DNA from: a virus
Taxonomy: Duplodnaviria; Heunggongvirae; Uroviricota; Caudoviricetes
Direction: 5' to 3' (one strand)
DNA length: 53,618 nucleotides
Virus record (IMG/VR): IMGVR_UViG_2563366968_000008
The stretch's first letter is position 1. Every line of letters begins with the position of its first letter. Below the pieces are notes generated by a model that saw only the letters and a list, made by a program, of their open reading frames with translations, had not been told where the DNA came from and made no database searches. Positions 5,169 through 44,559 of the stretch are shown in pieces. A program made the position numbers and the translations under genes.

Positions 5169-5181
5169 GTTTACAAAATGG
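5169..5181 (+). repeat. 13-mer GTTTACAAAATGG copy 1
   Basis: Exact copy, overlaps stop of 5171..6289 gene and lies 17 bp upstream of DnaB start. Confidence 0.8.
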
Positions 5182-6289
5182 AATATTCAGGGTAATAAAC
5201 AAAGCGCCCGATTTCCCCATGATCAGGACTGTAAATTATTACCGCAGCCAGCCGACGCGACCGCCATCCGCCATTTGTTGAATAAGCGTCTTTGCCAGCT
5301 AACGTGCCGTGATACTCAACAACGCCTAACGATGATTCAATCAGCCGTTGGTGATGCCAGTGTCCGCAATGAGCGTAAACCGCCGACGACTTGCCGAAAT
5401 CCTCCCGCCAGTCAGAGACGCAGGCAGACAACAAATTTTCTGGTTTTTTGATGGTGTGTCCGTGGTGGTAAGCAAGGAATGTTTTGCCGTACTGTGTGTG
5501 GTGAACGATAGCAGGGGACACATCAACCGTTACGCGCGGTTCATCTTCGTAAAAAGCCGCCAGCGCCGCACGTAGCCAGATCATCCCTGATTGGTCGTGA
5601 TTACCGGATAATGTCTGGATCTCGACATACTTATGATTTAGTAACATCTTCCCGACCGCACGCCTGACCGACCGGATCGCCACGTAAACCAGTTTTGCGT
5701 AGCGTGAATCGCAATCCAGGACGTGATTGCTTGATGGCGTCACTGGTAACAGGCCGTCAGTGTGAAGAATATCACCTCCTAACAACAAAACAGCCTTTTC
5801 AGACATTGGTGCCGCGCCCACCGCGTAGTCGAAGAAGTCATTTAACACACGTTCGGCGATCCCGGTGTCGTAGCTCTCACCGCATTCAGCTTTATGAGCA
5901 AGCGCACCGATATGCAGATCAAATACCGGATAAAGGGCCAGGCTTTTTTGAAAATCAATTTCAGGCACTGGCACAGCCTCCGCGCGTGGCATGTCTTCCG
6001 TGAATGCGTCGCGGGCAGCTTCCATTAGCCTTTCCATTTCATCACGGTCACGGGCAGTTTTAATCCAGCGCATGACCGTATTACCAGCCTTATCGACAAG
6101 AACAGATTCACCAGTAACGCCAAAACCAGGCGCGCGACGCGTTGATATTAAACCGCGTTTCGCCAGTTTTGCGCCTAGCCGCTCGACGTTGCGTTTTGAC
6201 ATGCCATATTTTTCAGCGATCTGCTTGTACGTTAAACCGTTGTTATATTCAGCGATCAATTGTTCATCGCTGATCTTTCTTTGCGACAT
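5171..6289 (-). CDS. HTH domain fused to calcineurin-like metallophosphoesterase
   Basis: N-terminal LTYKQIAEKYGMSKRNVER HTH; C-terminal DLHIG, GGDILHTDG, GNHD, HHGH, GHWHH phosphoesterase motifs. Confidence 0.6.
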   Translation of the reverse strand: MSQRKISDEQLIAEYNNGLTYKQIAEKYGMSKRNVERLGAKLAKRGLISTRRAPGFGVTGESVLVDKAGNTVMRWIKTARDRDEMERLMEAARDAFTEDMPRAEAVPVPEIDFQKSLALYPVFDLHIGALAHKAECGESYDTGIAERVLNDFFDYAVGAAPMSEKAVLLLGGDILHTDGLLPVTPSSNHVLDCDSRYAKLVYVAIRSVRRAVGKMLLNHKYVEIQTLSGNHDQSGMIWLRAALAAFYEDEPRVTVDVSPAIVHHTQYGKTFLAYHHGHTIKKPENLLSACVSDWREDFGKSSAVYAHCGHWHHQRLIESSLGVVEYHGTLAGKDAYSTNGGWRSRRLAAVIIYSPDHGEIGRFVYYPEYSIL

Positions 6290-6322
6290 AATGTTATTCC
6301 CTCATGTTTACTATATGTATAC

Positions 6323-7039
6323 TCAATCACAAACAAATAATTTAGTGATCCATGCTTGTCCCTTAGCAGTGAATAACGCTTGTTCGTATCCATCAAAGGT
6401 TAATTTCATCTCTCCGTATCCTTTATCAATAAACCATTGACTAAATACACGACGACAACGAAGATCATAAACTCCGACAGATTCTAGTTTTCTGTTTAAT
6501 TTAATTGCAGACATTCCGAGCGCCTTTCCGACCTCCGAAGCCGTGCGGTGCATGTCGTTTTTGACAATCGCGTCACATACAGCCGCTTTTGGTGCAAGCT
6601 GTTTATTGACCAGCGCAAGCCGTTCTTTTTCCTCAGCAAGATCAGCAGCAAGGCGCAATGCTTCGCTTAATGTTTGAGGAATTGCAGGAGTGTTTTGCTG
6701 TACACGTTTTTCGAGTTCAAACCATCGATCGATTACCGCTGTTCTCCTTAGTATATCGTAACCAGTGATTAAGATTTCTGTGTGCCTTCTATCAAGTAGG
6801 TATTCCCAGCCGTTCGGGTTGTTTTTATCATATTGGTGGCACGTAACTGATTGATTTGTAACGTAACCCAAATTTGGGTTACGGATATAATCATCAGGTT
6901 TACCGCCGTACAATTCAGAAAGTATCACGCGAACATCACGGCAAACATGGTCATGACGCTTTCCTGTCAATTCCGCAATCTCACGCGATGACATTGTTAA
7001 TACTTCATTCGCGCAATTAAGCGCCATCAATTCAGACAT
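6323..7039 (-). CDS. Rha-family regulatory protein / antirepressor (KilAC-like C-terminus)
   Basis: N-terminal SSREIAELTGKRHDHVCRDVR typical of phage Rha proteins. Confidence 0.55.
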   Translation of the reverse strand: MSELMALNCANEVLTMSSREIAELTGKRHDHVCRDVRVILSELYGGKPDDYIRNPNLGYVTNQSVTCHQYDKNNPNGWEYLLDRRHTEILITGYDILRRTAVIDRWFELEKRVQQNTPAIPQTLSEALRLAADLAEEKERLALVNKQLAPKAAVCDAIVKNDMHRTASEVGKALGMSAIKLNRKLESVGVYDLRCRRVFSQWFIDKGYGEMKLTFDGYEQALFTAKGQAWITKLFVCD

Positions 7040-7169
7040 TTTATTTTCTCCGTAAACGCGCTACAACGCAAAAATCCCACCGCGTAACCCGTTTGCACAG
7101 GTTGCAGTGTCTTATTGCGTCAGAGGCGCTATCAGGTGGCTAATTTTCGATTTACAGGCTGGTAGGTAG

Positions 7170-7271
7170 GTTATGGATTAACTAGCAGATACAAACCGCC
7201 GAACAAGGCGACGTTAACAGCGATAGCCATCGCGATCGCGAAAGCCAGGGCGAACATGCGTTTACCGTCCA
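7170..7271 (-). CDS. Micro-ORF encoding 33-aa hydrophobic peptide (MDGKRMFALAFAIAMAIAVNVALFGGLYLLVNP)
   Basis: ATG with GAGAGGA SD 8 nt upstream; single predicted TM helix; not in ORF track (<60 aa). Confidence 0.3.
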
Positions 7272-7404
7272 TTTTAAAATCCTCTCTGTAACGCTCTCTA
7301 ACGAGCTAATCGCAAAAAGGCAAGCAAGTTAGCACCACATGCGATTTAGCTCGCCGGTGAGGTTGTTTTGTGGGTAATTTTGGATTTTTGCGGATCGTGA
7401 TTGG

Positions 7405-8457
7405 TCAAAGAACGCCAGCGCGCGTATCACGTAGCGTTTTTGGTTTAAGCAGAAAATCAAGTGTCGCAGTGAAGCCATTGCCAAAGTAAAAATCTGAAGC
7501 CGTGTTTTTGAACGTTTCGAAGTAGGCGACAAAGCCGTTAATGCTTTTGTCTTTCAGGTAGTCAGTGAACGCATAGATCTTGCGTTCAAGATCCCGATCC
7601 AGTTCGGCAGGTGGTAACAGGCCGTCAAACGTGCTGTTAAATGCTTCCACCACGTCGGCAGCGTTTACAGTAGCTGATAGCTTGCGCCATTGTTCAGCAT
7701 CAGCCAAATACCCATCAAACCTAGTTACCCGGCAAATGTTGATAGGCTTAGGTACTCCACCACGGCTACGCCATTGGGTTAAAGCCCACTCAATTACTAA
7801 CGTGATCTCATTCTCCGTATACGCTTTACGTGTTTTTGTTTCTGTCAGTAGTTCTACGAATGGCTTAGCATCACGACATTTGCATCCTGCCTTGTCGTTG
7901 TAGAAGGCAAGGCAACGCAATGCCGCTTCGTTTACGCCATCCTGATTGACCATTTTTTGTTCATTTTCGACAATACACGAAGTGTATATATCTTTTTCTC
8001 TTTCTTTTTCTACTTCTAATTCTAATTCATGACCCTTTCCTGACCCGGTCATGACCCTATCATGACCTTTTTGTGTTGGATTGATTAACTTTTCTAATTT
8101 TAATTGCTCCTTAGCTGTGTTTATGGCGGCCCTGTACGCGCTTTTAGAAGTCATTGATTGGTCAAGCCTTTTCAATAACTTTAAACAAGTTATGTGGCCT
8201 TGAGAACATTCAAACAAACCAATTTCGATGAAGTATTTCATCATTTCTTCTATACGTTTTTCAGTCGATCCGACGTTTCGCGCAATGATTCTCGCGTCAT
8301 GTCGTAGGTCAAAAGTCAGATTGTGCTGATCTACGTCATAAGTTATTAGTTCGAGGCAATACCAATAAAGCCCGTACCCTTCCAGGCCATAATCTAACAA
8401 AACGTTTTGAAGTTTTTCATCGCGGTTCGCATCGCTGTCATGCTTAAACCACTTCAT
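7405..8457 (-). CDS. Phage replication initiation / replisome-organizer-like protein
   Basis: 350 aa; N-terminus MKWFKHDSDANRDEKL...YGLEGYGLYWYCLELI resembles phage replisome organizer N-terminal domain; directly follows HTH gene. Confidence 0.5.
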   Translation of the reverse strand: MKWFKHDSDANRDEKLQNVLLDYGLEGYGLYWYCLELITYDVDQHNLTFDLRHDARIIARNVGSTEKRIEEMMKYFIEIGLFECSQGHITCLKLLKRLDQSMTSKSAYRAAINTAKEQLKLEKLINPTQKGHDRVMTGSGKGHELELEVEKEREKDIYTSCIVENEQKMVNQDGVNEAALRCLAFYNDKAGCKCRDAKPFVELLTETKTRKAYTENEITLVIEWALTQWRSRGGVPKPINICRVTRFDGYLADAEQWRKLSATVNAADVVEAFNSTFDGLLPPAELDRDLERKIYAFTDYLKDKSINGFVAYFETFKNTASDFYFGNGFTATLDFLLKPKTLRDTRAGVL

Positions 8458-8460
8458 AGA

Positions 8461-8718
8461 TCATCCCTCCGGCAACATCACTACATAGACATCACTGAAT
8501 GCATCAAGACGACAAACAAATCCTTTATCCATTAACGCGGCGAAGGCATCATGTACCGTATGAACAGGAAGTTCACACATTGCGGCTACTTCTTTGCGTG
8601 ATGCATCATGTACCCGTCCTTTGTTATCTGCCTTTTCAGCCAGAGCCATTAAGACAAGTTTTTGAATCGGGCTATTAAGTTTTACGTTCCATGCTTTACT
8701 AATCATGTTTATACTCAT
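8461..8718 (-). CDS. Small HTH/winged-helix DNA-binding protein, first gene of leftward operon (ORF track 8461..8796; ATG 8718 preferred)
   Basis: ATG 8718 has GGAG SD 8 nt upstream; KLVLMALAEKADNKGRVHDASRKEVAAMCELPVHTV HTH-like segment. Confidence 0.45.
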   Translation of the reverse strand: MSINMISKAWNVKLNSPIQKLVLMALAEKADNKGRVHDASRKEVAAMCELPVHTVHDAFAALMDKGFVCRLDAFSDVYVVMLPEG

Positions 8719-8932
8719 CGCATTTTCTCCTATGGTTAGAGTGAACGCGCGGGCGGGCATCCCATTAGCATTAGATAGCAGTGACTGACCGCTCAACAGA
8801 TCCCGCCGTTGCGTGATATTTGTTTTTCGCTTCGCAGCGACACCGGATTTTTAAAGAGCATAAGGTAAGTGCCTTTTTGTGCCTTCCGTTATCTTTTTCC
8901 TTGTGTCTTTGCAAGTATGGCCTTACCTTGTC

Positions 8933-8993
8933 TGCAAGTTTACAAAATGGAATTTTAAGATCAAGGCTTAAAATACACGTTTTGTGACTTGCA
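8933..8993. promoter_or_regulatory. Divergent operator/promoter region with imperfect inverted repeat (TGCAAGTTTACAAAATG ... CGTTTTGTGACTTGCA)
   Basis: Arms at 8933-8949 and 8978-8993 between the divergent leftward gene and the repressor gene. Confidence 0.4.
8938..8950 (+). repeat. 13-mer GTTTACAAAATGG copy 2
   Basis: Exact copy in divergent regulatory region. Confidence 0.8.
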
Positions 8994-9023
8994 TCAAACT
9001 TTTTGAGGTTATAGGGTAGCGAC

Positions 9024-9671
9024 ATGAAAACAAAATGGTATAACTTAGCAAAGCAGCTCATGCGGGCGCAGGGCATGAGCCAGGATTCGCTCGCGGATCG
9101 TATGGGGATAACTAAAGGCGGCCTGTCACACTGGCTGAACGGTCGCCGAGAGCCAAATCTTGAAGATATTGCGCGGATTATGCGCGAGCTTGGTCGTCGG
9201 CAGTTTACTGTTACACATGATGGCATGGTCATTGATGATTCTGTTTCTAATACACTTCAGGCCGTGCCGCCGCGTGATTTAGGTAGTTACCCGGTTATTG
9301 ACTGGAAGGACACAGTAAACAATATGGATGACGCAAGGCGTTCAGCATTACGACACGTTACGACTAGCGTTATTTGTTCAGATGACAGTTACTGGCTGGT
9401 TGCCAAAGGTGAATCAATGAACGCGCCGCAGGGGTTGAGCATCCCGGCGGGGACGATGATACTTGTGGACCCGCACGCGCCAGCTATTGACGGCAAACTG
9501 GTTATAGCCCAGCTTGAGGAAGGGCAGATACCGACGTTTAAACAGTTGATTATTGATGGAGGTCAAAGGCTTTTACGTTCGCTCAATCCGCTGTATCCGC
9601 CAATCCCTATGAATCCAGAATCAAAAATTATAGGCGTGGTGGTTGATGCGAAGATCGTAAACCTGCCATAA
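9024..9671 (+). CDS. CI/LexA-like repressor (HTH_XRE + S24 peptidase domain)
   Basis: N-terminal HTH (QDSLADRMGITKGGLSHWLNGRR), C-terminal S24 peptidase-like domain with GESM motif. Confidence 0.85.
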   Translation: MKTKWYNLAKQLMRAQGMSQDSLADRMGITKGGLSHWLNGRREPNLEDIARIMRELGRRQFTVTHDGMVIDDSVSNTLQAVPPRDLGSYPVIDWKDTVNNMDDARRSALRHVTTSVICSDDSYWLVAKGESMNAPQGLSIPAGTMILVDPHAPAIDGKLVIAQLEEGQIPTFKQLIIDGGQRLLRSLNPLYPPIPMNPESKIIGVVVDAKIVNLP

Positions 9672-9676
9672 ACATT

Positions 9677-9701
9677 AGCCGCCGAATGGCGGCTTTTCTT
9701 T
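9677..9701 (+). terminator. Intrinsic terminator after repressor gene
   Basis: Hairpin AGCCGCC-GAAT-GGCGGCT followed by TTTCTTT. Confidence 0.6.
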
Positions 9702-9794
9702 GCCTGGAAAACACCAAAACGTAAACAGAAAACGTTATTTATTATTTAAATATCAATGGCATATAAAATATTTTAAAAAAGTATACAAAATGGA

Positions 9795-9823
9795 TTGACT
9801 CGATGTTTTACGGGGCGTATATT
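9795..9823 (+). promoter_or_regulatory. Sigma70-like promoter (TTGACT, 17 bp spacer, TATATT), candidate rightward early promoter
   Basis: Near-consensus -35/-10 with 17-bp spacing; 13-mer-like motif GTATACAAAATGG immediately upstream. Confidence 0.5.
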
Positions 9824-10077
9824 GCGAGTCAAAGGAAGGGCGCAGGTAACAAAAGCAACTTCCTGGCACTTTAAAAATCAGGCTTAACACCTTGTCAACC
9901 GTGGAGTAACTCCCCGATGGGGGACCGAAAGCGGCACTGATAACAAGGCGCATGGGGTGTTTAAAGCGTTACATCCCCCACGAAACCGCACGCAAGGCGA
10001 CGAGTCAGCTTGCTTGGAGTGAGCAAGGTCACGCCGGGAACGGCGATGATTGCGGGATTAGTTGAAAGATGTTAAGC

Positions 10078-10115
10078 CGCTCATTAACAATCTGGTCAGC
10101 CGCTGGAAGTGCGGC
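10078..10115 (+). promoter_or_regulatory. nut-like site: boxA-like CGCTCATTAACAA plus boxB-like hairpin GCCGC-TGGAAGT-GCGGC
   Basis: boxA resembles GCTCTTTAACAA; 5-bp stem hairpin 8 nt downstream; lies in leader upstream of the N-like gene. Confidence 0.35.
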
Positions 10116-10171
10116 AATTAACGAAGATGATTTTTTATTAAGTATCATCAAGGATATACGGAGATCAGATT

Positions 10172-10462
10172 ATGAGCGTTACAATTATATATGGTAAATG
10201 TGATAGCAAAATGAATGCCAGGGAACGCAGAAGGATAAAAAGAGAAAACGAAAGAAAATCATCACCTGCAATCAATAAAACAGACAATGTGGATAAAGCT
10301 ATTCGATTTGCAAACGAGGAAAGATGCAAACCAAATAGCATTAAAGAACGTCGCAAAGGATCAGTAAAATGGTATACGGAAAATGAAAGCGGCAGCTACT
10401 ACCACGCAACGCAACCACGCCATTTAGGGGAAAAACCCCTGGATAAAGTCCGCTACCATTAA
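10172..10462 (+). CDS. N-like transcription antiterminator candidate (arginine-rich motif)
   Basis: 96 aa basic protein; NARERRRIKRENERK resembles the arginine-rich RNA-binding motif of lambdoid N proteins; first gene after the promoter/nut-like leader. Confidence 0.4.
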   Translation: MSVTIIYGKCDSKMNARERRRIKRENERKSSPAINKTDNVDKAIRFANEERCKPNSIKERRKGSVKWYTENESGSYYHATQPRHLGEKPLDKVRYH

Positions 10463-10492
10463 TACAAAATGTAAACATCCGGAGATGACATT

Positions 10493-10615
10493 ATGGTTAT
10501 TCAGGCGCTTCAATTCAAACTGGCAGTAGCGGAAATGCTTCACGATGCCGAAATGTGGAGCGCCGCGAATAAAGCCTTATACATAGTGTTAACAGCACGG
10601 GAGATTAAATGGTGA
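10493..10615 (+). CDS. Micro-ORF (40 aa) translationally coupled to erf-like gene
   Basis: ATG with GGAG SD at 8 nt; stop overlaps downstream start. Confidence 0.3.
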   Translation: MVIQALQFKLAVAEMLHDAEMWSAANKALYIVLTAREIKW

Positions 10616-11253
10616 AAACAGAGTTACATAAAAAGCTATGGACGATTCAGCAAACGCTGAACGCGCCGAAAAATCAGCGTAATAATTTTGGTGGATATAA
10701 TTACAGGTCGGCGGAGGATATTTTAGAGGCGGTTAAACCACTGCTTCAAAATATCACGCTGACTGTTAGTGATGAAATTGTCCTGATCGGCAATCGCTAT
10801 TATGTGAAAGCAACGGCGACGCTAAGCGACGGTGAAGACGTAATAGCGGTAACTGCTTATGCCAGGGAGGAAGAAAACAAGAAGGGTATGGACGCCAGCC
10901 AGCTAACAGGAGCAACATCAAGTTACGCGCGTAAATATGCTTTGAACGGTTTATTCTGTATAGATGATGCTCGCGATCCTGATACTGATGCTTACGCGAA
11001 GCAGACAGGCCAGCAGCCGCGACAACAGAAAAACCCACCAAAACAACAACCGCAGCAGAAGAAAGCGCCGCCAAATCCTGATGAAGTATTAGCACGTTTC
11101 TGTGATGCAGCAGCGAAAGCGCAGGACGCTAACAAGCTGCGTGAAATATTTGGCAAATGCTGGAAATTACTACCGGAAGGATCGGAACATCGAATCAAGG
11201 CAAAAGATGTTTATGACATCCGGGTCGCAGAGCTTAACGGGGAGATGGGTTAA
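10609..11253 (+). CDS. ERF-family single-strand annealing protein candidate
   Basis: 214 aa; FGGYNYRSAEDILEAVKP segment and Q/P-rich linker; sits immediately upstream of ssb. Confidence 0.5.
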   Translation: MVKTELHKKLWTIQQTLNAPKNQRNNFGGYNYRSAEDILEAVKPLLQNITLTVSDEIVLIGNRYYVKATATLSDGEDVIAVTAYAREEENKKGMDASQLTGATSSYARKYALNGLFCIDDARDPDTDAYAKQTGQQPRQQKNPPKQQPQQKKAPPNPDEVLARFCDAAAKAQDANKLREIFGKCWKLLPEGSEHRIKAKDVYDIRVAELNGEMG

Positions 11254-11672
11254 TGAGTTTGAATTCAATTACGCTGGGCGGGAATATCGGAAACGACATG
11301 GAAGTTCGCTACACGCAAAACGGTAAAGCGATTGGTAGTTTTCCGTTAGCTGTAACGAATGGCTACGGTGATAACAAGCGGACAATGTGGATCACTTGCC
11401 TGGTATTTGGTGAGCGTGCGGAAAAATTAGCGCCACATATCCGCAAGGGTGGAAAAATAGTGGTAAGCGGTCGCCTGGATGTTCGGCAATATGACCGGAA
11501 CGACGGCACGAAGGGGACTGCGGTAGAAGTGGCGGTTAATGAATTTGAATTCATGAATGTTAACCAACAAGGCCAGCAGCAAGGACAGCAGCAGAAAGCG
11601 CCGCCGCAGCAGCAGAATAATAACGGGAATAATCCGCCTCCGATGGACTTCGACGACGATATTCCTTTTTAG
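11253..11672 (+). CDS. ssb: Single-stranded DNA-binding protein
   Basis: OB-fold region, Gln/Gly-rich linker and acidic tail DFDDDIPF. Confidence 0.85.
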   Translation: MSLNSITLGGNIGNDMEVRYTQNGKAIGSFPLAVTNGYGDNKRTMWITCLVFGERAEKLAPHIRKGGKIVVSGRLDVRQYDRNDGTKGTAVEVAVNEFEFMNVNQQGQQQGQQQKAPPQQQNNNGNNPPPMDFDDDIPF

Positions 11673-11688
11673 AATCAATGTGTTAGCG

Positions 11689-11967: not shown

Positions 11968-11979
11968 TGAGGTATTACC

Positions 11980-12335: not shown

Positions 12336-12342
12336 GGTTTAT

Positions 12343-13235: not shown

Positions 13236-13248
13236 AAGGATAAATATC

Positions 13249-13869: not shown

Positions 13870-13968
13870 CCGAGTAATTCCGATCACATAAATATACATT
13901 TTGTATTGTGATTGTATATCCGTTTTGTAAGCCGAAATCAAAAGGTTTACGGTGCGGAGGAAGCAAAA

Positions 13969-14673: not shown

Positions 14674-14674
14674 A

Positions 14675-14911: not shown

Positions 14912-14915
14912 TCCT

Positions 14916-15699: not shown

Positions 15700-16024
15700 G
15701 GCAGCAGATTTATTGAGACTTGCAGCGGAAACCATAGAGCAAAGAGGTAAACAAAACGGCTACGACAAAAAAGAGGAAAAATCAGCGCCAAAAATAGCCA
15801 CTATTTACAACGCTAAGAAGGGAGCAGATTTAACCCCGCTTGATGTATGGGATCTGCTAATTTGTCTCAAGGAGGCGCGTTTAGAGGCCATTTTAAGCAA
15901 TAAATCAGATCCGACAGACACGCTAATTGATTTGATTAGCTATAACGCGCTAAAAGCGGAGCAAATATTAACGGAGCGGGAGGAAGCCCAAAGAAAGAAA
16001 CGGGCTGTTTTGATATACCGTTAA
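15692..16024 (+). CDS. Hypothetical protein (110 aa)
   Basis: ATG with GAGGTG SD overlapping Dam stop. Confidence 0.45.
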   Translation: MTKAADLLRLAAETIEQRGKQNGYDKKEEKSAPKIATIYNAKKGADLTPLDVWDLLICLKEARLEAILSNKSDPTDTLIDLISYNALKAEQILTEREEAQRKKRAVLIYR

Positions 16025-16162: not shown

Positions 16163-16666
16163 ATGGAAAGGGTGACAATTGACAGGTTATTGGCCTGCAT
16201 TTATGTCGCCGTTTTCGTGATCATTAACCTTATTGTTAACCACTGCGGCCCGTGGGTAATTCCGATCACCACGGTAGCCGCCGTGTGCGTCAATATGATG
16301 ATCCGTGACTTCCTGTTATATGACGGCGGCCTGAAATGGTCGGCTACAACATGCGCCGCCGCTGGCGCAATCACGGTGCTGATAAACTACGATGCCGGGA
16401 TGGTGGCGATCGCGTCATTCGTCGCGGTTGTTTCCGGTGCGCTTATTTCTGGCGGTGTTTACCGGATTTTACCTGGCGATTTCGATTCAAAACGCTGGCC
16501 TGCGAATATAGCGTCCGCCATTGGTGATGCGTTAATTTTTCCCACGCTATCGTTTATGGCATTTATGCCGGAAATATCAGCTATGCAATTCATCTCAAAA
16601 ATGGCGGCTGTAACGGTGATCACTATCATCATTCGTCGCTATTTTACGTTCGAGGGTAGGAAATGA
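16163..16666 (+). CDS. Polytopic membrane protein (start uncertain; ORF opens at 16091)
   Basis: 4-5 hydrophobic segments; stop overlaps start of downstream methyltransferase-like gene (ATGA). Confidence 0.5.
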   Translation: MERVTIDRLLACIYVAVFVIINLIVNHCGPWVIPITTVAAVCVNMMIRDFLLYDGGLKWSATTCAAAGAITVLINYDAGMVAIASFVAVVSGALISGGVYRILPGDFDSKRWPANIASAIGDALIFPTLSFMAFMPEISAMQFISKMAAVTVITIIIRRYFTFEGRK

Positions 16667-17427
16667 GTGGGCTTAGAAATTGGGTGGTGTGGTCGCTGTA
16701 CGACGGCAGCGGGTACGCCGTTAAAGATTGGGCCGACGCTGGCTATAAGTGTTATTGTTTCAATTATGACGGCGCTAATCATGGCGATTATGAAGGCGTC
16801 AAGATCATTCATCCTAACATTGAATATGTCAACGTATGGATTGACAGCCATTTCCTGGTAATGTTCTCCCCTGAATTGTCTGTTTATCCAGATCCTGACA
16901 TTATCCTGGGCTTTCCTCCGTGCGACGATCTTGCGGTGTCCGGCGCTCGTTGGTTTTCAAGCAAGCGTGAAAAAGATCCTTACTTCCAGCAGAAGGCGGC
17001 ATACAACGCAAAACTGGTAGAAACGCTTGCTGACATGTACCACGTCCCGTGGATGGTGGAAAACCCGGTTGGAGCACTGTCAACGTTATGGCGTAAGCCG
17101 GATTTCATTTTTAATCCGTGCGCTTACGGTGGCTACCTGCCGGAAGATGATAAGCATCCAGCTTTCCCGGAATACATCGCCGACCGCGACGCCTACACGA
17201 AGAAAACTTGTATCTGGTGCGGCAACGGATTTAAACAGCCGCTATTTCGGCCTGTACCAATGCCTGATGAGTGGGAAGATAGTAAGCAGCACGCGAAGTT
17301 AGGCGGGAAGTCGAAGCGCACTAAGATGATCCGCTCACTCACGCCGCGAGGATTCGCCCGTGCTGTATTCCTGGCTAATGACCGGGCAATCACGCGGACT
17401 ACTCTTAACCGCGTTTTACCGGATTGA
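16663..17427 (+). CDS. DNA C5-cytosine methyltransferase-like protein (divergent, short)
   Basis: Motif I-like SLYDGSGY, motif IV-like GFPPCDDLAVSGA (PC with D replacing Q), motif VI-like VENPVGAL; 254 aa lacks an obvious target-recognition domain. Confidence 0.5.
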   Translation: MSGLRNWVVWSLYDGSGYAVKDWADAGYKCYCFNYDGANHGDYEGVKIIHPNIEYVNVWIDSHFLVMFSPELSVYPDPDIILGFPPCDDLAVSGARWFSSKREKDPYFQQKAAYNAKLVETLADMYHVPWMVENPVGALSTLWRKPDFIFNPCAYGGYLPEDDKHPAFPEYIADRDAYTKKTCIWCGNGFKQPLFRPVPMPDEWEDSKQHAKLGGKSKRTKMIRSLTPRGFARAVFLANDRAITRTTLNRVLPD

Positions 17428-17428: not shown

Positions 17429-17441
17429 GTTTACAAAATGG
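17429..17441 (+). repeat. 13-mer GTTTACAAAATGG copy 3
   Basis: Exact copy 2 bp after methyltransferase-like gene stop. Confidence 0.8.
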
Positions 17442-17587
17442 CGTCATTGTGTGATGTGGATCACATAATGGCGCTTTATTGTTTGTTCGCATGTATCCGT
17501 TTTGTATACTTCAAACAAACAAAATGCTCTTTAAAAATCCGGTAACGCTGAAATGCGTAAAAATCACCTGAAAAAGGAGAGAGCATT

Positions 17588-18966: not shown

Positions 18967-19695
18967 ATGAATTTAGAATCCATTCTAAAATTCCACTTTC
19001 CCAAATCACCGCGATTGTCAGACGAAAGCAGGGGAACATCACCTGATGCACTTAATACGACGGATGCGCTTACCGCCGCTGGTATGGCGCAATCGCGCGT
19101 AGCGCTTGGTTACAGCGCTTTTTTGGGGAAGATGGAACTATCGCAAACTGAAAAACACAGGGCCGTAGTTTTGCTTACAGAGCGTTTAAGAGCTATGGCA
19201 AAAGATTACGAATACGTTATGGAGTTGGACGATGAGCGACGCAATGATCTTATTATTCTTGTTGCCGTTTTCGCGTTTCGGGATTACTGCCAGAGTGCGG
19301 CGACCGAAAAGGTTTGCCCTAAATGCGGTGGAAACGGGCTTTTACCGCATCCATGCTGCGAATACACATCAACGGTTTGTTCGCGGTGCAACGGGAAAGG
19401 CTACGTTAAAAACCATTGCCAGCGGTGCAAAGGGCGCGGCGAGATACCGGATAAAGCAGCCAGTGAAGCAGCGGAAATGCCAGTTTTCAAAACGTGCCAG
19501 CATTGTGGCGGGCGCGGGTACTCGCGTTTCCCGGTAGATCTTGTCCGACAGGCGGTTAATCAGCTTGTTTTCCCGGTAAGCCGATCAACATGGTGGAAGA
19601 AATACAGGGTTTTCTATGAGGACGCCATAGCGGAGCTATTTAAAGAAGAAGCCCGCGCGGAAAGCGAAATTAAACGAGTGACACGGGGTGAATAA
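18967..19695 (+). CDS. Q-like late antiterminator candidate with DnaJ-type zinc finger
   Basis: Four CxxCxGxG repeats (CPKCGGNG, CSRCNGKG, CQRCKGRG, CQHCGGRG); position after ninG/rusA and before lysis genes matches lambdoid Q. Confidence 0.45.
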   Translation: MNLESILKFHFPKSPRLSDESRGTSPDALNTTDALTAAGMAQSRVALGYSAFLGKMELSQTEKHRAVVLLTERLRAMAKDYEYVMELDDERRNDLIILVAVFAFRDYCQSAATEKVCPKCGGNGLLPHPCCEYTSTVCSRCNGKGYVKNHCQRCKGRGEIPDKAASEAAEMPVFKTCQHCGGRGYSRFPVDLVRQAVNQLVFPVSRSTWWKKYRVFYEDAIAELFKEEARAESEIKRVTRGE

Positions 19696-20493: not shown

Positions 20494-20736
20494 AGATCTA
20501 CATTTAAACCTGAAAGGAGAATACTTTTACGCCATCCGGGCGGGAAAGAAGGTGGAGGAATACCGACTTTATAATGACTATTGGCGTAAACGCCTGAAAG
20601 GGCGGGAATATGAACGCCTGATAATCAAGCTGGGGTATCCAGCCAGCCACGAAACACACCGGATCATAAACCTGCCTTATTTCGGGTATGAAGTGAAAAC
20701 TATCACACATCCATTGTTCGGCCCTGATCCTGTTAA

Positions 20737-21931
<1,195 letters not shown>

Positions 21932-21986
21932 TTAAGGTATTCGCAATTAAATGTGATGTGAATTGGATGTTAAGGTGGGGTGAGCA

Positions 21987-38172: not shown

Positions 38173-38218
38173 ACAATAAGGGGGCTATTTAGCCCCCCTT
38201 CCTTTTAGGGTGAAGACT

Positions 38219-38896: not shown

Positions 38897-38917
38897 ATCC
38901 GGGCGTTTGTCTTATTT
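38888..38917. terminator. Bidirectional hairpin terminator between chaperone and opposite-strand secreted-protein gene
   Basis: GCCCGG-TAGAT-CCGGGC with T-rich run downstream on plus strand and TTTTTCT on minus strand. Confidence 0.5.
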
Positions 38918-39325
38918 GATTCTAACAATATCAATAAAACCGTTACCTAAATCGACAATTGCGTGATTTTTTGCACCAGCGCCGCCTTTATTAAAAATTC
39001 TTTCAGCGAAAGCAACTTTATTTGCTTTGCACTCGTTAGCTATCCTGTTTTTTATTTCGCTGTTGTTTTCAAAGACTACGCCTACAGCAGCCTCGTTTAC
39101 AAGGCCATAATTAAACCAACGAGCATAAACTGGTTTACCTTCAAAATTTTTATCAATTGCCTTAAAAAGAATTGTGGGTGCGGCTGGTTCTTTTTTGATC
39201 ATGTCGTGATATGCGGCTACATGGTTTGCCACTTCTTCACAGTTAATGTTTATGGCCTCGTTAGCGTTAGCGTTAAATGCTAGTGCAGCAATCACAGCAA
39301 GCACCATTTTTGCTAACCGTTTCAT
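38912..39325 (-). CDS. Secreted (signal-peptide) protein of unknown function, opposite-strand insertion in tail module
   Basis: Signal peptide MKRLAKMVLAVIAALAFNANA with ANA-NE cleavage-like site; AGGGGG SD; AT-rich upstream region. Confidence 0.55.
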   Translation of the reverse strand: MKRLAKMVLAVIAALAFNANANEAININCEEVANHVAAYHDMIKKEPAAPTILFKAIDKNFEGKPVYARWFNYGLVNEAAVGVVFENNSEIKNRIANECKANKVAFAERIFNKGGAGAKNHAIVDLGNGFIDIVRIK

Positions 39326-39628
39326 AATCAACCCCCTGTAATTATTCTGATTTGCTAAATGCTTCCTTTAACTTAGTTATACACGCATATTGTTTATTTT
39401 TTAAGTGCTTTTAACATTTCTTCGATAAGGTCCGCATAGCGTTCATATTCGTTGGGACGGTAGTTTACGTTTCTCATTTTCTTATCCTCTTTCACTTCCT
39501 CCGGGACATCCGGCCTTCCTGCATCTCTTCTATCTTTCTCTACATCATATATACAAAACGGTATCGTTAAAATAAAGACATTTTGTATAAAATAGATACA
39601 TAGATCACATTTTGCATGAGGTTAAATC

Positions 39629-41971
39629 ATGGCTACCAGTGTAGGCACAATTTATTACGAAGTTGACGCAAAAACAGGACAACTTCTTGTAGCACAACGA
39701 CAGGCAGACCAGGCCTTTGACCGTATAGAGCGCGGTGCTAAACAGGCCGATCGCCAGGTAAACACACTGAAAACATCAATCAAAGCACTGACCAGGGTTA
39801 TCCATCTGCTAATTGCTGCCGAGGCCGTTAGACAGTTTATGGAAATGGCAGAGCAGGCCAAAATGCTACGCGTCAAAATCAAAATGCTTACAGGCGACGC
39901 GGAATCTGCCGGGCGGGTTTTTGATGGTCTGAAAGAAATATCCAGGGAGACGGGGCAGAGTCTGAAAGATACTGGCGAATTATGGCAAGGCCTGGCTATC
40001 TCACTAAAAAACACCTCCGCTACGGAAGGGCAATTGCTTAACCTGGTTGGCACTATTCAGAAAATGGGTGCATTAGGCGGCGCGTCAGCGGAACAGATGT
40101 CTAACTCAATGCGTCAATTCCGTCAGTCTATCGACGGCGGTGTTCTTCGTGCCGAAGAATTTAACAGCCTGCTTGAAAATACGCCGACCATCGTACAAAC
40201 AATGGCCCGCCATATGGGATTATCAATGGGCCAGTTCCGCGCCGAAATGCTGGACGGCAAGATCACGGCTGAAAGGATGGTTAACGCAATACAGGCGGCT
40301 ACGCAGGAAACAAACGATAAGTTTGCTCAGTTGCCGCGCACATCCGGCATGGCTATCAATGAGCTTAAAGTAGAAATTATGGGCCTTGTTGAGCAGTTGG
40401 ATGATCTTTTTGGCGTATCAGATGGCGTTGTTTCAGCTATCGACTTGATCACGAAAGGCGTTAAAGGGCTTGGCGATGGCGCTAAATTCGCTAAAACCTG
40501 CTTCGACACACTCAAAACGGCTGGTAGCGAATTTATCGACATGTTTGATGATGTGGCTGTTAAGGCTGGAGAGGTGGCAGAGAAGATCATCGCAATGGTG
40601 ACGCCAATCAAGGCGCTAATGGATGGCTATAAATGGATGAAGGAGGTAGTAGGGGAGCAAACCGACGAATATAACAGCAACTACGAGAAGAAATACGGGA
40701 AGACCGTTGGCAAGGTCATGCAACTACAGGATGATCTGACCGCAGCAATCCAGGCTACAGAAGAAGCAAGGAAAAATGAACAGAATGCTGCCAATGACGG
40801 AGCGATTACCGGATTCGACAAGCCAGTAGACAAGCCGAAAAAACAGAAAAAAGAGAAGAAATCGGAAGCTGATCGGCTTGGTGACAAAGGTATAAGCGTT
40901 TCTGATCAGTACAACAAAGACGCCGCCGCCATGCGCAAAGCGTTGGAGAACGGCAAGGCCATTGATGCTGCATTTGCCCAGGGTAAAATCACGCTCCTTG
41001 AGTACCGCGCCGCGCAAAAAGGGATCGGCAAGGAACTGAAAGAAGAATTAGCGCAGATCCCGGTAGATGAACTGCGTGATAAATGGTCGCAAATAGTTAG
41101 CCCGATGGACCAGCTAAAAGGCGAGGTTGACCCCATCCAGCAGGCACAAAATGAATGGGCCGTCCGTAAGCAAATGCTTATCGACCTGGGCGCTACAGAA
41201 GCACAACAGAAACAGGAATTGTTAGCCTATGAGCAGCAGATCCGCGATCTGAAGTGGGAGCAGTGGCAGGCGCAAAGCGACACTAACGGCCTTATCGGTG
41301 ATTGCGTTAATGGCCTTAAAGGTGGCATGAGCAATGCGCTTGTTGGCCTGCTTAACGGCACTCAATCATTGAGCGATGTTTTTGCTAACTTAGGGAGCAA
41401 TATACTAGGGAACATCGGCAACAGGCTTTCTGACATAGCCGCCAACTGGATAGCAGATCAAATCATGATGGAGACACAAAGCAAGGCAATGCAGGCCAGC
41501 ACAACGGCAAGTGCGGTAGCCGCTCAGGGTAGCATCGCTGCGGCAGCGGCCCCGGCAGCGGCGGCAACAGCAGCATCAACTGGCGGTAGCTGGGCGGCGG
41601 CTGGCTCTGCGGCACTCACTGCGATCATGTCTCTGGCAACATCCATCTTCGGTGGCAGGCGCTTTAATGGTGGTAGCGTCATTGGTGGCAACTTGTACCG
41701 TGTCGGGGAAAACAACAGGACGGAGCTATTCCAGACGCCTAACGGGAATCAATATATGATTCCTGGCGAGAACGGCAGAGTTATTCCGGGCCGTGATATT
41801 GGCGGCGGTGGCGGTATTAGTATGCCTGTCAGTATCAGCATTCAGACCACGAACGGATTCAGCGACGAAGACAGCCGCAGACTTGAATTAACAATGGAAC
41901 GTGTAGCCATGAAAATGATAACAAGGGAATCTCAAAGACCAGGCGGAATGTTGCAACCTCGCCGCAAATAA
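39629..41971 (+). CDS. Tail tape measure protein
   Basis: 780 aa, alpha-helical, Gly/Ala-rich segments near C-terminus; upstream of M/L/K/I/J homologues. Confidence 0.8.
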   Translation: MATSVGTIYYEVDAKTGQLLVAQRQADQAFDRIERGAKQADRQVNTLKTSIKALTRVIHLLIAAEAVRQFMEMAEQAKMLRVKIKMLTGDAESAGRVFDGLKEISRETGQSLKDTGELWQGLAISLKNTSATEGQLLNLVGTIQKMGALGGASAEQMSNSMRQFRQSIDGGVLRAEEFNSLLENTPTIVQTMARHMGLSMGQFRAEMLDGKITAERMVNAIQAATQETNDKFAQLPRTSGMAINELKVEIMGLVEQLDDLFGVSDGVVSAIDLITKGVKGLGDGAKFAKTCFDTLKTAGSEFIDMFDDVAVKAGEVAEKIIAMVTPIKALMDGYKWMKEVVGEQTDEYNSNYEKKYGKTVGKVMQLQDDLTAAIQATEEARKNEQNAANDGAITGFDKPVDKPKKQKKEKKSEADRLGDKGISVSDQYNKDAAAMRKALENGKAIDAAFAQGKITLLEYRAAQKGIGKELKEELAQIPVDELRDKWSQIVSPMDQLKGEVDPIQQAQNEWAVRKQMLIDLGATEAQQKQELLAYEQQIRDLKWEQWQAQSDTNGLIGDCVNGLKGGMSNALVGLLNGTQSLSDVFANLGSNILGNIGNRLSDIAANWIADQIMMETQSKAMQASTTASAVAAQGSIAAAAAPAAAATAASTGGSWAAAGSAALTAIMSLATSIFGGRRFNGGSVIGGNLYRVGENNRTELFQTPNGNQYMIPGENGRVIPGRDIGGGGGISMPVSISIQTTNGFSDEDSRRLELTMERVAMKMITRESQRPGGMLQPRRK

Positions 41972-41975
41972 ACTA

Positions 41976-42006
41976 AACCCCGGTGCAATGCCGGGGTTAT
42001 TTTTCG
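41976..42006 (+). terminator. Intrinsic terminator after tape measure gene
   Basis: AACCCCGG-TGCAATG-CCGGGGTT hairpin followed by ATTTTTCG. Confidence 0.55.
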
Positions 42007-42057
42007 TATTTATAAACGACCATTCCGCGCGATATATCCCCTTTCGAATATCTCGAC

Positions 42058-42312
42058 TCACTTATGAGTGCCTTTCACGCCACATAACTTGTTATAGGCA
42101 TGATGCTCAACAATTAACCAAACCTTCAAATCTTCGCTAAACAGCCTCCAATCAAGATTGATATCCATTTTGTATCCGTAACCGTCGCGTAACTTTTTGG
42201 GGTAAACTTCTTTTCTCAGAAAGGCTTTAAGTAATTCCTTACCTTTCTTGATGATCCGGTCCTGTGCGTTTTTCTGTGCTTTCAGATTTCTGTCAATCGC
42301 TACCAGTTTCAT
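42058..42312 (-). CDS. RelE/YafQ/HigB-superfamily toxin-like protein
   Basis: 84 aa; Lys-rich N-terminus and C-terminal DINLDWRLFSEDLKVWLIVEHH...GVKGTHK resembles YafQ/HigB C-termini; GGGGTGAG SD. Confidence 0.4.
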   Translation of the reverse strand: MKLVAIDRNLKAQKNAQDRIIKKGKELLKAFLRKEVYPKKLRDGYGYKMDINLDWRLFSEDLKVWLIVEHHAYNKLCGVKGTHK

Positions 42313-42329
42313 AACTCACCCCATCATCC

Positions 42330-42485
42330 TTAGTTAAGTGCCTTCAGGAAGAAGTCCCGGTATTCATCTTCTTTCGCATTCATCATGAATTGACCGTATT
42401 TGAATGCGTCGTCGAAACCCTTAACGATTGCTATTTCCACTTGTTCGAATGCGTTATTTAGCATTACTACTACATAGCGTTTCAT
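42330..42485 (-). CDS. Small ORF (51 aa) upstream of toxin-like gene, candidate antitoxin
   Basis: ATG with AGGAGG SD at 7 nt; 17-bp gap to toxin-like gene start. Confidence 0.3.
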   Translation of the reverse strand: MKRYVVVMLNNAFEQVEIAIVKGFDDAFKYGQFMMNAKEDEYRDFFLKALN

Positions 42486-42555
42486 TTTGGGCCTCCTTCG
42501 TTGGTACTACTTTCTTCTTGCTTTCTGCATACATCTTGTTGCGTGCTATGTGAAG

Positions 42556-42568
42556 CCATTTTGTAAAC
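42556..42568 (-). repeat. 13-mer GTTTACAAAATGG copy 4 (reverse orientation)
   Basis: CCATTTTGTAAAC on plus strand, followed 5 bp later by TATAAT. Confidence 0.8.
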
Positions 42569-42597
42569 TAGCTATAATCATTGTGACAATGATCTTA

Positions 42598-42620
42598 TTT
42601 TTCGCGTAGAAGCGCGTAAA
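42598..42620 (+). promoter_or_regulatory. 23-bp motif TTTTTCGCGTAGAAGCGCGTAAA upstream of M gene
   Basis: Second copy of the portal-upstream motif (2 mismatches). Confidence 0.4.
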
Positions 42621-42652
42621 GATATATACAAAATGTAACTTGTGGGGGGTTT

Positions 42653-43006
42653 ATGCCGGAAGTGTTCAGATGGACGCCGCAAAGAAGCTACAGCGTGACC
42701 AGGAAGCCAGACGTATCTGTTGTTAAGTTGGGCGATGGTTATGAGCAAAGACAGGTAAAAGGTATCAATCCATTGCTTGATAGCTACACCCTGGTGTTTA
42801 AAGGTAGTAGCGCCGGATGTGGTGATGGTGGAAACGTAGCAATCCAGGCGGAAGCATTCTTGAGGGCGCACGGCGCGGTCGAGGCTTTTTACTGGTCGCC
42901 GTCGATGGATAACGTGCAAAGGCTTTTTGTTTGCCGTAGCTGGAGCATGACTAAAGACGGTCCGCTATACACGCTAAATGCAACATTTGAGCAAGTTATT
43001 AATTAG
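42653..43006 (+). CDS. Minor tail protein M (lambda gpM-like)
   Basis: FRWTPQRSYSVTRKPDVSVVKLGDGYEQRQ and C-terminal FEQVIN resemble lambda M. Confidence 0.8.
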   Translation: MPEVFRWTPQRSYSVTRKPDVSVVKLGDGYEQRQVKGINPLLDSYTLVFKGSSAGCGDGGNVAIQAEAFLRAHGAVEAFYWSPSMDNVQRLFVCRSWSMTKDGPLYTLNATFEQVIN

Positions 43007-43017
43007 GGGGAGGGGAT

Positions 43018-43200
43018 ATGCCTTATTTTTGTGTAGTGGAGCGCACTGGCGCTTTTACATTGTTCGCCGACCATGAAATTAAAGATCTTACTGTCCGGGC
43101 TGATAACGGTGAGACGTGGTATCTTCATGATATGGGTGATGGATATATCGGCTGTACGACTTGGGATGGCAAAGAAGTCGCATTTCTATCCTACGATTAA
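43018..43200 (+). CDS. Hypothetical small protein (60 aa)
   Basis: GGGGGAGGGG SD; followed by terminator. Confidence 0.4.
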   Translation: MPYFCVVERTGAFTLFADHEIKDLTVRADNGETWYLHDMGDGYIGCTTWDGKEVAFLSYD

Positions 43201-43203
43201 AAA

Positions 43204-43230
43204 ACACCCCGCCACGGCGGGGTTATTATT
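43204..43230. terminator. Bidirectional hairpin terminator
   Basis: CCCCGC-CACG-GCGGGG; T-rich on plus, TGTTTTTT on minus. Confidence 0.5.
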
Positions 43231-43437
43231 ATCCCATTTCCATTAACGCTATATTTTCCGCTATCGTTTTCCAGTCCAGATCTACAGCGTGAACACCAAA
43301 TACTATCAATCCCATTGCGATTAGTGTTAAAACTTCGATTTTCACAATCAACCTCACTTAATTAAGAAAGGCATAAACGATGGCAATCGCGCCAGCCATT
43401 ACTAAAACATTTTCGATTACTTCGTTTACTTAATTGA

Positions 43438-43641
43438 TTAAGGTAACTCCACTTCGTTAAATGTAACAAGCACCCCTTGATTTTCTTTATTTATAATTAT
43501 TAAAGAATTAATTGAAGGCAGACATCTTTCCACGCGGTAAACGCCACCAATATCTAAACTGTAATATTCTGTTAATTCTCTATTGTTCCCTTTAGCAAAA
43601 CCCGTAAACCTAACCATTCTTTGACCGTCGTACTTTAACAT
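43438..43641 (-). CDS. Hypothetical protein (67 aa), opposite-strand operon gene 4
   Basis: ATG ORF; operon on minus strand between M and L. Confidence 0.4.
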   Translation of the reverse strand: MLKYDGQRMVRFTGFAKGNNRELTEYYSLDIGGVYRVERCLPSINSLIIINKENQGVLVTFNEVELP

Positions 43642-43649
43642 ATACAGTC

Positions 43650-43898
43650 CTATAAGTTATCACGCAGATAATTAACGCCCTTATCAGTGACGAATGAATG
43701 ATTAACCTGGTTTTCATCCGTCATGATGATGAATAACTTTTCCTGCAAGTATTTCGCTTTCGGGTACAGCGTTAAGCAGACCTGGTACAGTATCCCGCGC
43801 TCAATCAGCAAATCAATGAATTCATGTTCATGATAACCGATAAGGCGGGCGGCCTGTTTCAACGTGTACACATAATCACCGTGATTGCGCCGCGCCAT
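43650..43898 (-). CDS. HTH-like small protein (82 aa), opposite-strand operon gene 3
   Basis: YTLKQAARLIGYHEHEFIDLLIERGIL resembles an HTH. Confidence 0.4.
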   Translation of the reverse strand: MARRNHGDYVYTLKQAARLIGYHEHEFIDLLIERGILYQVCLTLYPKAKYLQEKLFIIMTDENQVNHSFVTDKGVNYLRDNL

Positions 43899-43907
43899 AT
43901 TGCCGCC

Positions 43908-44261
43908 TTATTTATTGAACGCGCCAAGTTTGTCGATACAGAAATCTTTCGCCGCTTTTTCGTATTCGCGTTTTGCTTCTGGATCGTCAGCCGGGAAACC
44001 TTTTGCGTGTATTTCACCAGGGCAAGACTGGTCCATAGAATCTGCATAATAAGCAGTGAAGCTACCATTAATATCTTTCGGGTTCATATCTTCCACCTTA
44101 TCCGGTATTTGTACTGGAGTAATTTTGAATTCTCTGGCGCGACCGAAGAATCGAACGAGTTTTTCTCCTTCCTCGACCGCCATTTCGTAACTGTCATGCA
44201 AACCGTAACCTTCCCAATCATCACTACCAGCCATCCAGACATCAAGACGATACTTTTGCAT
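43908..44261 (-). CDS. Hypothetical acidic protein (117 aa), opposite-strand operon gene 2
   Basis: ATG 44261 with GAGGGT SD; in frame within ORF 43908..44363. Confidence 0.45.
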   Translation of the reverse strand: MQKYRLDVWMAGSDDWEGYGLHDSYEMAVEEGEKLVRFFGRAREFKITPVQIPDKVEDMNPKDINGSFTAYYADSMDQSCPGEIHAKGFPADDPEAKREYEKAAKDFCIDKLGAFNK

Positions 44262-44265
44262 TTTG

Positions 44266-44430
44266 CTAACCCTCATATTTGACAGGTTCGATCTGGTATC
44301 CCAAAAGGCGGTCATCCTCAGCAAGTAAAAGCGCGTCAACCAATGCTTCACCCTCGTCGTCATACAGGGCGATAACCTTTTCCCTACCGTCTGTCATGAA
44401 TACCGTCAACTTCCATAGCTTTTCAGTCAT
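44266..44430 (-). CDS. Hypothetical acidic small protein (54 aa), opposite-strand operon gene 1
   Basis: ATG 44430 with GGAGGTG SD; 4-bp gap to next gene. Confidence 0.35.
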   Translation of the reverse strand: MTEKLWKLTVFMTDGREKVIALYDDEGEALVDALLLAEDDRLLGYQIEPVKYEG

Positions 44431-44559
44431 AACGCACCTCCGCGCCATTTTGTTAACTTCCCCTTCGTTTGAGTAAAATATACATATTGTAAAAACCACG
44501 ATCAATCCATTTTGGTGTGATTTAGCGTGGCGCAGATCACAAAATGACAAGGTGAGAAA

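Follow-up and report, generated by a model that had tools for sequence, protein, structure and literature searches.

This analysis concerns a recurrent 13-mer, GTTTACAAAATGG, in a 53,618-nucleotide stretch of tailed-phage DNA (IMG/VR record IMGVR_UViG_2563366968_000008; "the window", at its full length, in what follows) and its probable connection with the phage repressor gene rep. The window is related to the mEpimmI group of temperate E. coli siphophages, being 86-87% identical over most of its length to the members mEp010, mEp044 and mEp021. The group, described in 2025, comprises prevalent gut coliphages with one common immunity type, set by a single repressor, Rep021; three nut sites have been mapped, and no operators are defined for these phages in the group's paper (PMC11893012). 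A description of the operators presented below was likewise not found in the literature searched, where full-text matching of the sequence strings returned only unrelated eukaryotic material.

The rep gene (9024..9671, +), which is 92% identical in DNA sequence to the Rep021 region of mEp021, encodes a 215-aa CI-like protein and the presumptive binder of the motif. Pfam places an HTH_3 domain (1.5e-12) and a Peptidase_S24 domain (5.7e-19) in Rep, and the match to the lambda CI structure 3bdn (E=1.4e-20; residues 15-208) extends over both; to judge from these matches, Rep is a true lambda CI homologue in its HTH and in its S24/oligomerisation domain alike. Its acidic residues D21 and D25 align with lambda CI E34 and D38, the positive-control residues (pc mutants). 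To the left of rep lies the first gene of the leftward (PL) operon (8461-8796, -), which is not Cro-like, its matches being with N-terminal domains from replication initiators (PHROG 4617). (It is also unrelated to the mEp021 gene occupying the same slot.) The N-like gene (10172-10462) is on the right. A boxA is found at nutL (8843-8860, -) and at nutR2 (17525-17542), and a boxA-like sequence at nutR1, just 3' of PR; these positions agree with the nut sites described for the group (PMC11893012).

Exact copies of GTTTACAAAATGG are located at 5169-5181(+), 8938-8950(+), 17429-17441(+) and 42556-42568(-), all four at gene boundaries, precisely as an earlier note on this DNA had reported; the near copies that it listed are equally real (9781 and 44445 with one mismatch, 51499 with two). 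Its contention that so many copies are far above chance also holds: the mean in 100 dinucleotide-preserving shuffles is 0.01, and none of the 100 reaches four. At no more than two mismatches there are 12 sites, where 2.6 are expected, and the core ACAAAATG, with 20 copies, is the top-ranking and most over-represented 8-mer of the window. What the note's inventory of seven missed is the larger part of the family, which comes to about 22 conserved sites and includes palindromic relatives of the form ATACAWWWTGTAT (10460, 13892, 42624, 44478, 51465) and a perfect dyad at 6306-6322.

The note had also proposed counting the motif in host DNA, with an equal frequency there as a result that would speak against its reading. 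Equal frequency is not seen: a sample of 111 kb from the E. coli chromosome has no copy of the 13-mer and a single one of TACAAAATG (0.09 per 10 kb vs 2.05 per 10 kb in the window), making the motif approximately 20-fold rarer in the sampled host DNA. In 44 IMG/VR relatives with the same Rep and 31 close tail-region loci its density equals that of the window; in 833 kb from other phage groups (49 tail loci of similar GC content, 51%), TACAAAATG is absent, with 5.8 occurrences expected from base composition. Many other long intergenic regions of the window also lack the motif, which is therefore not a general trait of AT-rich spacers.

The proposed operator unit and the immunity region

Taken together, the members of the family indicate that the unit is a 17-bp pseudo-dyad, consensus GTWTAC-N5-G(T/G)AWAC, with five mostly A/T central bases. 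On this alignment GTTTAC, at one end of the 13-mer, would be the consensus half and GG, at the other, the start of the weak half, with the A/T-rich centre in between. The earlier note's suggestion that the motif is bound by a regulator, perhaps the phage repressor, accordingly gains computational support, and for the CI-like repressor specifically; the 13-mer as the unit of recognition gives way to the 17-bp pseudo-dyad. Near-perfect dyads exist in the window (6306, 10460, 13892, 17493) and also at L135 and L136, the loci of Rep homologues in an Enterobacter contig and a Citrobacter prophage, respectively. Spacing within pairs is 25 bp at 9781/9806, 24 bp at 13892/13916 and 25 bp at 39549/39574, with 25 bp again at L135 and at L132, a locus from a divergent phage of the window's own family; other neighbouring operators are 30-37 bp apart. 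A family-level matrix shows symmetric, weak flank preferences. The sites of the immunity region and those dispersed elsewhere conform to one common consensus, and their orientations are mixed inside operons: the rightward early operon contains 9781(+), 13916(-), 17429(+) and 17493(-). That mixed orientation relative to transcription, together with palindromic stems of only 6 bp and empty Rfam (gathering threshold) and tRNA scans, led to rejection of an element acting at the RNA level; leaderless or non-Shine-Dalgarno starts at the motif's ATG were rejected because the resulting open reading frames (ORFs), of 2-35 codons, are inconsistent.

We think it probable that the lambda-CI-type repressor Rep has a 17-bp operator, with the 13-mer as its strong part, and that this operator is disposed in lambda-like fashion at the immunity region and also dispersed genome-wide. 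The arrangement around rep is as follows. At PL, an exact 13-mer copy (8938..8954, +) lies between the first leftward gene and rep. Its reverse strand, AATTCCATTTTGTAAAC, supplies the PL spacer and the -10 element TAAACT (8942-8937), with the -35 element TTGATC (8964-8959) 16 bp upstream and the nutL boxA 75 nt downstream of the site; the operator is kept in 29 distinct relatives save for one central base (GTTTACAGAATGG or GTTTACATAATGG). A weaker operator, AGTCACAAAACGTGTAT (8973..8989, -), in which the block ACGTTTTGTGACTTGCATC is fully conserved, has its centre about 43 bp ahead of the rep ATG, where lambda CI sits when it activates PRM. Equivalent sites exist at L132 and at L135, the latter centred on -42 relative to the start of the repressor gene. 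The operator-like GTTTACGTTTTGGTGTT (9710..9726, -), which follows the rep terminator and precedes PR, is near-invariant in 29 distinct relatives and stands amid variable flanks.

PR itself (TTGACT-17-TATATT, 9795-9823) is the top promoter match of the early region, at 10 of 12 positions. It carries two operators 25 bp apart: the OR2-type GTATACAAAATGGATTG (9781..9797, +), the right half of which overlaps the -35 element TTGACT (9795-9800), and the OR1-type TTTTACGGGGCGTATAT (9806..9822, +), placed over the -10 element TATATT (9818-9823). Both are invariant in 29 distinct relatives (ACGGGGCGTATATTGCGA at OR1) and the PR spacer is partly variable; the OR2/OR1 arrangement recurs, on alignment, at L132, L135 and L136. 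By analogy with lambda, a Rep dimer would bind each 17-bp pseudo-palindrome, and pairs 24-25 bp apart would be bound cooperatively by way of the CI-like C-terminal domain. With one operator over the PL -10 and two over the PR -35 and -10, occupancy would shut both promoters in the lysogen. A dimer at the -43 site could activate rep transcription, the acidic D21/D25 having been kept, and RecA-stimulated self-cleavage of the S24 domain would free the operators.

The -10 elements embedded in these operators raise a different question: are the copies simply -10 regions of a set of similar σ70 promoters and no protein-specific operator at all? The reverse strand, TTTTGTA(A/T)AC(T), does resemble TATAAT, many sites end in TAAACT, TATACT, TATATT or TATAAT, and PL, PR, the tail-region promoter P44 and a candidate promoter ahead of nutR2 (the latter two are described below) use sites as their -10. 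Most copies, however, are without a -35 at 16-18 bp (only PL, PR, P44 and the candidate at 17493 have one), and promoter-like matches in the window do not exceed the shuffle expectation. The conserved positions, moreover, include spacer bases that are not read by σ70, and they show dyad symmetry; at L135 and L136 there are three dyads per region, only one of them over a -10; and the 5169 site would put a transcription start within the helicase gene's ribosome-binding site. Such a set of promoters is, in our estimation, decidedly improbable.

Conservation, and the company of Rep homologues

Among relatives of the window, operator cores are conserved islands amid variable flanks: at a threshold of 90% or more conservation, 86% of operator-core columns qualify, vs 72% of the other non-coding columns (eleven regions; Fisher p=1.4e-6). 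The more telling comparison is with other lineages. A database search for Rep homologues found proteins with recognition helices that are the same as, or near-identical to, that of Rep. P0007 (55% identity to Rep, identical recognition helix) comes from the divergent phage of the window's family (L132-L134); P0009 (51% identity) from an Enterobacter contig in which the repressor gene is followed by genes of host rather than phage type (L135); and P0012 (50% identity) from a Citrobacter prophage of a different type, with replication genes for a DEAD helicase and a primase and with another antiterminator (L136-L138). Beside all three genes, to the left and to the right, stand triplets of nnATAC-N5-GTATnn that overlap promoters in the same manner. 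On the right of the Enterobacter gene, GTATACATATCGTTACC, GTATACATTTTGTATTG and GGATACGTTTTGTATAT follow one another at spacings of 34 and 25 bp, GTATACATTTTGTATTG over a -35 and GGATACGTTTTGTATAT over a TATATT -10, with boxA next; on its left, an operator covers the -10 of TTGCCA-17-TATACT. The PR and P44 regions of the window and the PR regions of L132, L135 and L136 can be aligned in a common frame.

Recognition helix and operator sequence thus travel together across otherwise unrelated phages, in other genera and in another type of prophage (P0009, P0012). It is primarily this co-occurrence across lineages, with the lambda-like geometry and the 24-25 bp pairing, that assigns the motif to Rep. 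In the L132 lineage the dispersed sites also keep their relative positions (one next to the start of the helicase gene, one behind the N-like gene, a pair after a 218-aa gene, and a pair bracketing a hairpin); in the unrelated Citrobacter prophage, such sites are found only beside the repressor gene. Within E. coli no immunity swap could be demonstrated: 35 of 5426 complete genomes match the Rep region, all of them over at least 80%, and genomes with the tail-region sites (22) are no more numerous than these 35.

The same observations bear on the idea that a host DNA-binding protein recognises the motif, which we rate as the slightest of chances. GTTTACATTTTG is loosely like published OmpR sites, a resemblance with no computed support; none of the host consensuses considered (IHF, Fis, CRP, TyrR, OmpR, CpxR, PhoP, ArcA) fits. 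Against a host protein, the motif is rare in the sampled host DNA, as already described, and accompanies Rep homologues from one genus to another; a CI-type dimer suits its dyad form and the 24-25 bp between paired sites.

A more serious competitor is another phage protein, binding either all of the sites or only the dispersed ones. Two kinds come to mind. The first is a Cro-type protein: Cro proteins normally use CI operators too, and L132 and L136 have a Cro-like HTH_3 gene beside rep. In the window and in mEp021, however, no Cro-like HTH_3 gene was found at the usual place. The second is the 372-aa product of the gp11-like gene, possibly a helix-turn-helix protein at its N-terminus: it is conserved family-wide, gives weak, sub-threshold HTH matches and has a perfect dyad just 5' of its gene. 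Yet at the L135 and L136 loci there is no gp11-like gene among those called, and the same operators flank the Rep homologues there. The single consensus of the dispersed sites and those of the immunity region also speaks against another protein. We consider both unlikely.

The assignment to Rep has its own difficulties, and the following points must be weighed against it: 1) Rep homologues come with a whole immunity module, so that a Cro-type protein acting on the same operators would be inseparable from Rep by co-occurrence. 2) The exact 13-mer copies are poorly symmetric in the weak half (2-3 of 6 matches), and the strong conservation of the A-tract and of TGG is not fully accounted for by a symmetric dimer. 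3) A position weight matrix limited to the half-sites has low specificity and sets phage apart from host only modestly; the A/T-rich centre is needed. 4) Several dispersed sites have no recognisable promoter. The assignment of the operators as such is nonetheless an ordinary one and well supported; it is their apparent spread over the genome that is unusual for a CI homologue.

Sites dispersed through the early operons and the tail module

About 15 further sites lie outside the immunity region. The leftmost, an exact 13-mer copy without a -35 (5169..5185, +), is situated between the gp11-like gene (5171-6289, -; conserved, 372 aa), the stop codon of which it overlaps, and the helicase gene, which starts 17 nt away. 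It is kept in relatives and has a copy in the same position in the diverged L132 (6706-6722). (At exactly this junction, mEp021 and mEp010 have an HNH endonuclease gene, 6045-6583 and 5304-5894, respectively, that is absent from mEp044 and from the window, where the junction is at 5152-5171; in other relatives HNH genes are found beside other copies, for example in L005, 3' of the small ORF after the N-like gene.) At the other end of the gp11-like gene, directly 5' of its ribosome-binding site, is the perfect dyad GTTTACTATATGTATAC (6306..6322, +). The palindromic TAATACAAAATGTAAAC (10460..10476, +) overlaps the stop codon of the N-like gene with its first bases and is followed 3' by the ribosome-binding site of a 40-aa ORF; it is kept in 24 distinct relatives, and its L132 equivalent is at 11279-11295. 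Each of the three sites is intergenic within an early operon (5169 and 6306 in the left one, 10460 in the right one), and no promoter is evident at any of them.

A conserved intercistronic cassette recurs at these places (10460-10496, 6289-6322, and approximately 5300-5340 in mEp010/L002): an operator is followed, after 2-4 nt, by a GAGG/GGAG ribosome-binding site and then by ACATTATG. The genes behind the cassette are unrelated to one another (the gp11-like gene, the ORF of 40 aa that comes after the N-like gene and, for mEp010, that of the helicase), and the context of the start codon, ACA(T/A)(T/A)ATG, is itself like the operator core.

Farther along the rightward operon, the paired operators ATATACATTTTGTATTG (13892-13908) and GCTTACAAAACGGATAT (13916-13932, -), at a distance of 24 bp, have conserved cores and a variable spacer; the L132 equivalent, at 16022 and 16047, 25 bp apart, follows the 218-aa gene. 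Ahead of nutR2, an exact 13-mer copy (17429..17445, +; conserved) begins 2 nt past the stop of ORF 16663-17427, a homologue of the mEp021 cytosine methyltransferase gene, and is, like the three sites just named, without a promoter. It precedes a terminator hairpin (17440-17475), on the far side of which, before the nutR2 boxA, is the near-perfect dyad GTATACAAAACGGATAC (17493..17509, -). The dyad is conserved, the adjacent spacer is variable, and the plus strand offers a TATACT -10. These two inverted copies, 64 bp apart, bracket the hairpin just before nutR2; the hairpin that precedes NinG in L132 (~19346-19400) is bracketed in the same way by two inverted sites, and the operator arms lengthen its stem. 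(The terminator stem of the window holds a perfect CRP-type TGTGA-N6-TCACA at 17450-17465; it lies outside the motif and was set aside as an explanation of it.)

In the tail module, operators stand at the promoter-proximal end of each of four leftward inserts. The first group is a pair 25 bp apart (39549..39590) in the divergent region between an insert and the tape-measure gene; the cores TACAAAACG and CATTTTGTA are conserved islands with variable flanks, and the cargo on the left flank differs among relatives. The second insert, between the tape-measure and minor tail genes, is a leftward toxin-antitoxin-like pair (42058-42485, -) consisting of an 84-aa ParE-like toxin ORF and a 51-aa upstream partner. 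Upstream of it is an exact 13-mer copy, GTTTACAAAATGGCTTC (42552..42568, -), between ORF 42330-42485(-) and the minor tail gene at 42653; the palindromic ATATACAAAATGTAACT (42624..42640, +) is 72 bp from that site and just 5' of the minor tail gene. The operator-like GGATACAAAATGGATAT (42161..42177, -) is inside the toxin ORF and its function is the least certain of all, precisely because it is in coding sequence.

The third group forms the promoter P44 (44441..44527, -), with TTGATC (44505-44500) and TATATT (44482-44477) separated by a 17-bp spacer. One operator is at the -35 (44511-44527), one over the -10 (44478-44494) and one downstream of the start (44441-44457), all with conserved cores. 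P44 (44462-44532, -) is a sequence paralogue of PR (9772-9840), the two having CAAAATGGATTGA...TTTTAC...GTATATT in common. It heads a leftward operon of four ORFs, one of which (43650-43898, 82 aa) is ANT/KilAC-like. (A second ANT domain is present in the Rha-like gene at 6323-7039.) The last group, three sites at 51435..51515, lies between the leftward ORF 50964-51410 and the tail fibre gene: a weak one (51435-51451), the palindromic AAATACATTATGTATAA (51465-51481), which includes TATAAT, and a third at 51499-51515.

The variability of what adjoins these sites invites the thought that they are module-boundary linkers serving recombination and mosaicism. Several do have one constant and one variable flank, as in the three different left flanks both at 39.5 kb and at the site upstream of the gp11-like gene, and in the presence or absence of the HNH gene at 5169. 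But an operator lies no more than 15 bp away from only 9 of 202 clusters of homology breakpoints, homologous exchange would have little to work with in 13-17 bp, and the PL/PR sites have a clear regulatory geometry. We regard linkers as very improbable.

Comparison with known repressors, and a possible role for the dispersed operators

If Rep is a CI-type repressor, why would its operators be found so far from its gene? The resemblance to lambda is close where lambda provides a precedent: the repressor is homologous in both domains; the operators, 17-bp pseudo-dyads in which one half is strong and the other weak, flank the repressor gene, overlap the divergent early promoters and, when adjacent, are 24-25 bp apart; one site is centred at about -42 or -43 from the repressor start, and the acidic positive-control residues are retained. 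The differences are that the operator sequence is a new one, that no Cro-type HTH_3 gene occupies the position that it has at L132 and L136, that the right arm carries the N-like gene and the left arm the replication genes, and that at least 14 further operators exist outside the immunity region, including in the late and tail region, where lambda has none.

Dispersed operators have precedents elsewhere. The repressor gp71 of mycobacteriophage L5 has a recurring 13-bp site with more than 20 copies genome-wide, at promoters and in short intergenic spaces within operons; it is a monomer with two DNA-binding domains (HTH and stoperator), and its site is asymmetric, with an orientation that follows transcription (PMC9283540). 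Numerous sites over the genome (about 22 here), some of them in short in-operon spaces, are the point of likeness. Rep, as an HTH_3 + S24 protein with pseudo-dyad sites in mixed orientations, differs: the monomeric two-domain repressor, asymmetric site and transcription-tied orientation that define the L5 system are not features of this one. The C1 protein of P1 is likewise one immunity repressor with many operators genome-wide, including one at the gene of a repressor inactivator (coi), to which the antirepressor-like ORF behind P44 may be compared. C1 is unrelated in sequence and has an asymmetric 17-bp site; Rep, by contrast, is an HTH_3 + S24 protein. In the immI region of P22, an ant-type gene among the late genes has its own tightly repressed promoter under Mnt and Arc control. 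The window, too, has an antirepressor-type gene with its own promoter among late genes, and differs in that P44 carries the main immunity operator; a Mnt- or Arc-type repressor was not found, the 55-aa product of the first ORF behind P44 being without a Pfam DNA-binding match.

What might the extra sites do? Most likely they would silence secondary promoters in the prophage; at P44, occupancy would block RNA polymerase. Sites within operons that have no promoter might be roadblocks to read-through, or anchors for repressor-mediated looping. A double-negative loop would result if P44 is repressed by Rep and if Rep, in turn, is inactivated by the ANT-like product. The full extension of this line of thought, a CI-type dimer running a genome-wide silencing network by means of about 15 extra operators, with an antirepressor loop that locks induction, gated tail inserts, and roadblocks or looping anchors, is possible but rather doubtful. 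Were it correct, it would be a convergent and structurally different counterpart of the mycobacteriophage stoperators in common gut coliphages. Should the dispersed sites prove to be occupied, Rep would be a lambda-CI homologue whose operators span the whole genome, and the phage a tractable E. coli system for silencing by roadblocking or looping with a dimeric repressor, as is done by the unrelated L5 repressor. Quite apart from that, the operator consensus and site map, with predicted PL, PR, rep promoter and PR-like tail promoter, make immunity, virulent mutants and induction accessible to experiment.

Some minor observations remain. ORF 50964-51410(-), between J and the tail fibre gene, has a probable signal peptide (MKKLIVACILSALSFGAFA) and fills the slot in which relatives carry an Lpp superinfection-exclusion lipoprotein; genes for exclusion are expected to be expressed by the prophage, which sits oddly with repression of the 51.4-kb unit by Rep. 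A good dyad match inside the portal gene, TTATACAAACTGTATCG (30908-30924), may be due to chance. Finally, a copy of IS5 (20733-21934; transposase ORF 20883-21899, -) is inserted 3' of the Q-like gene of the window; relatives are without it, and it is 99.5% identical to the IS5 of P1 and other records.

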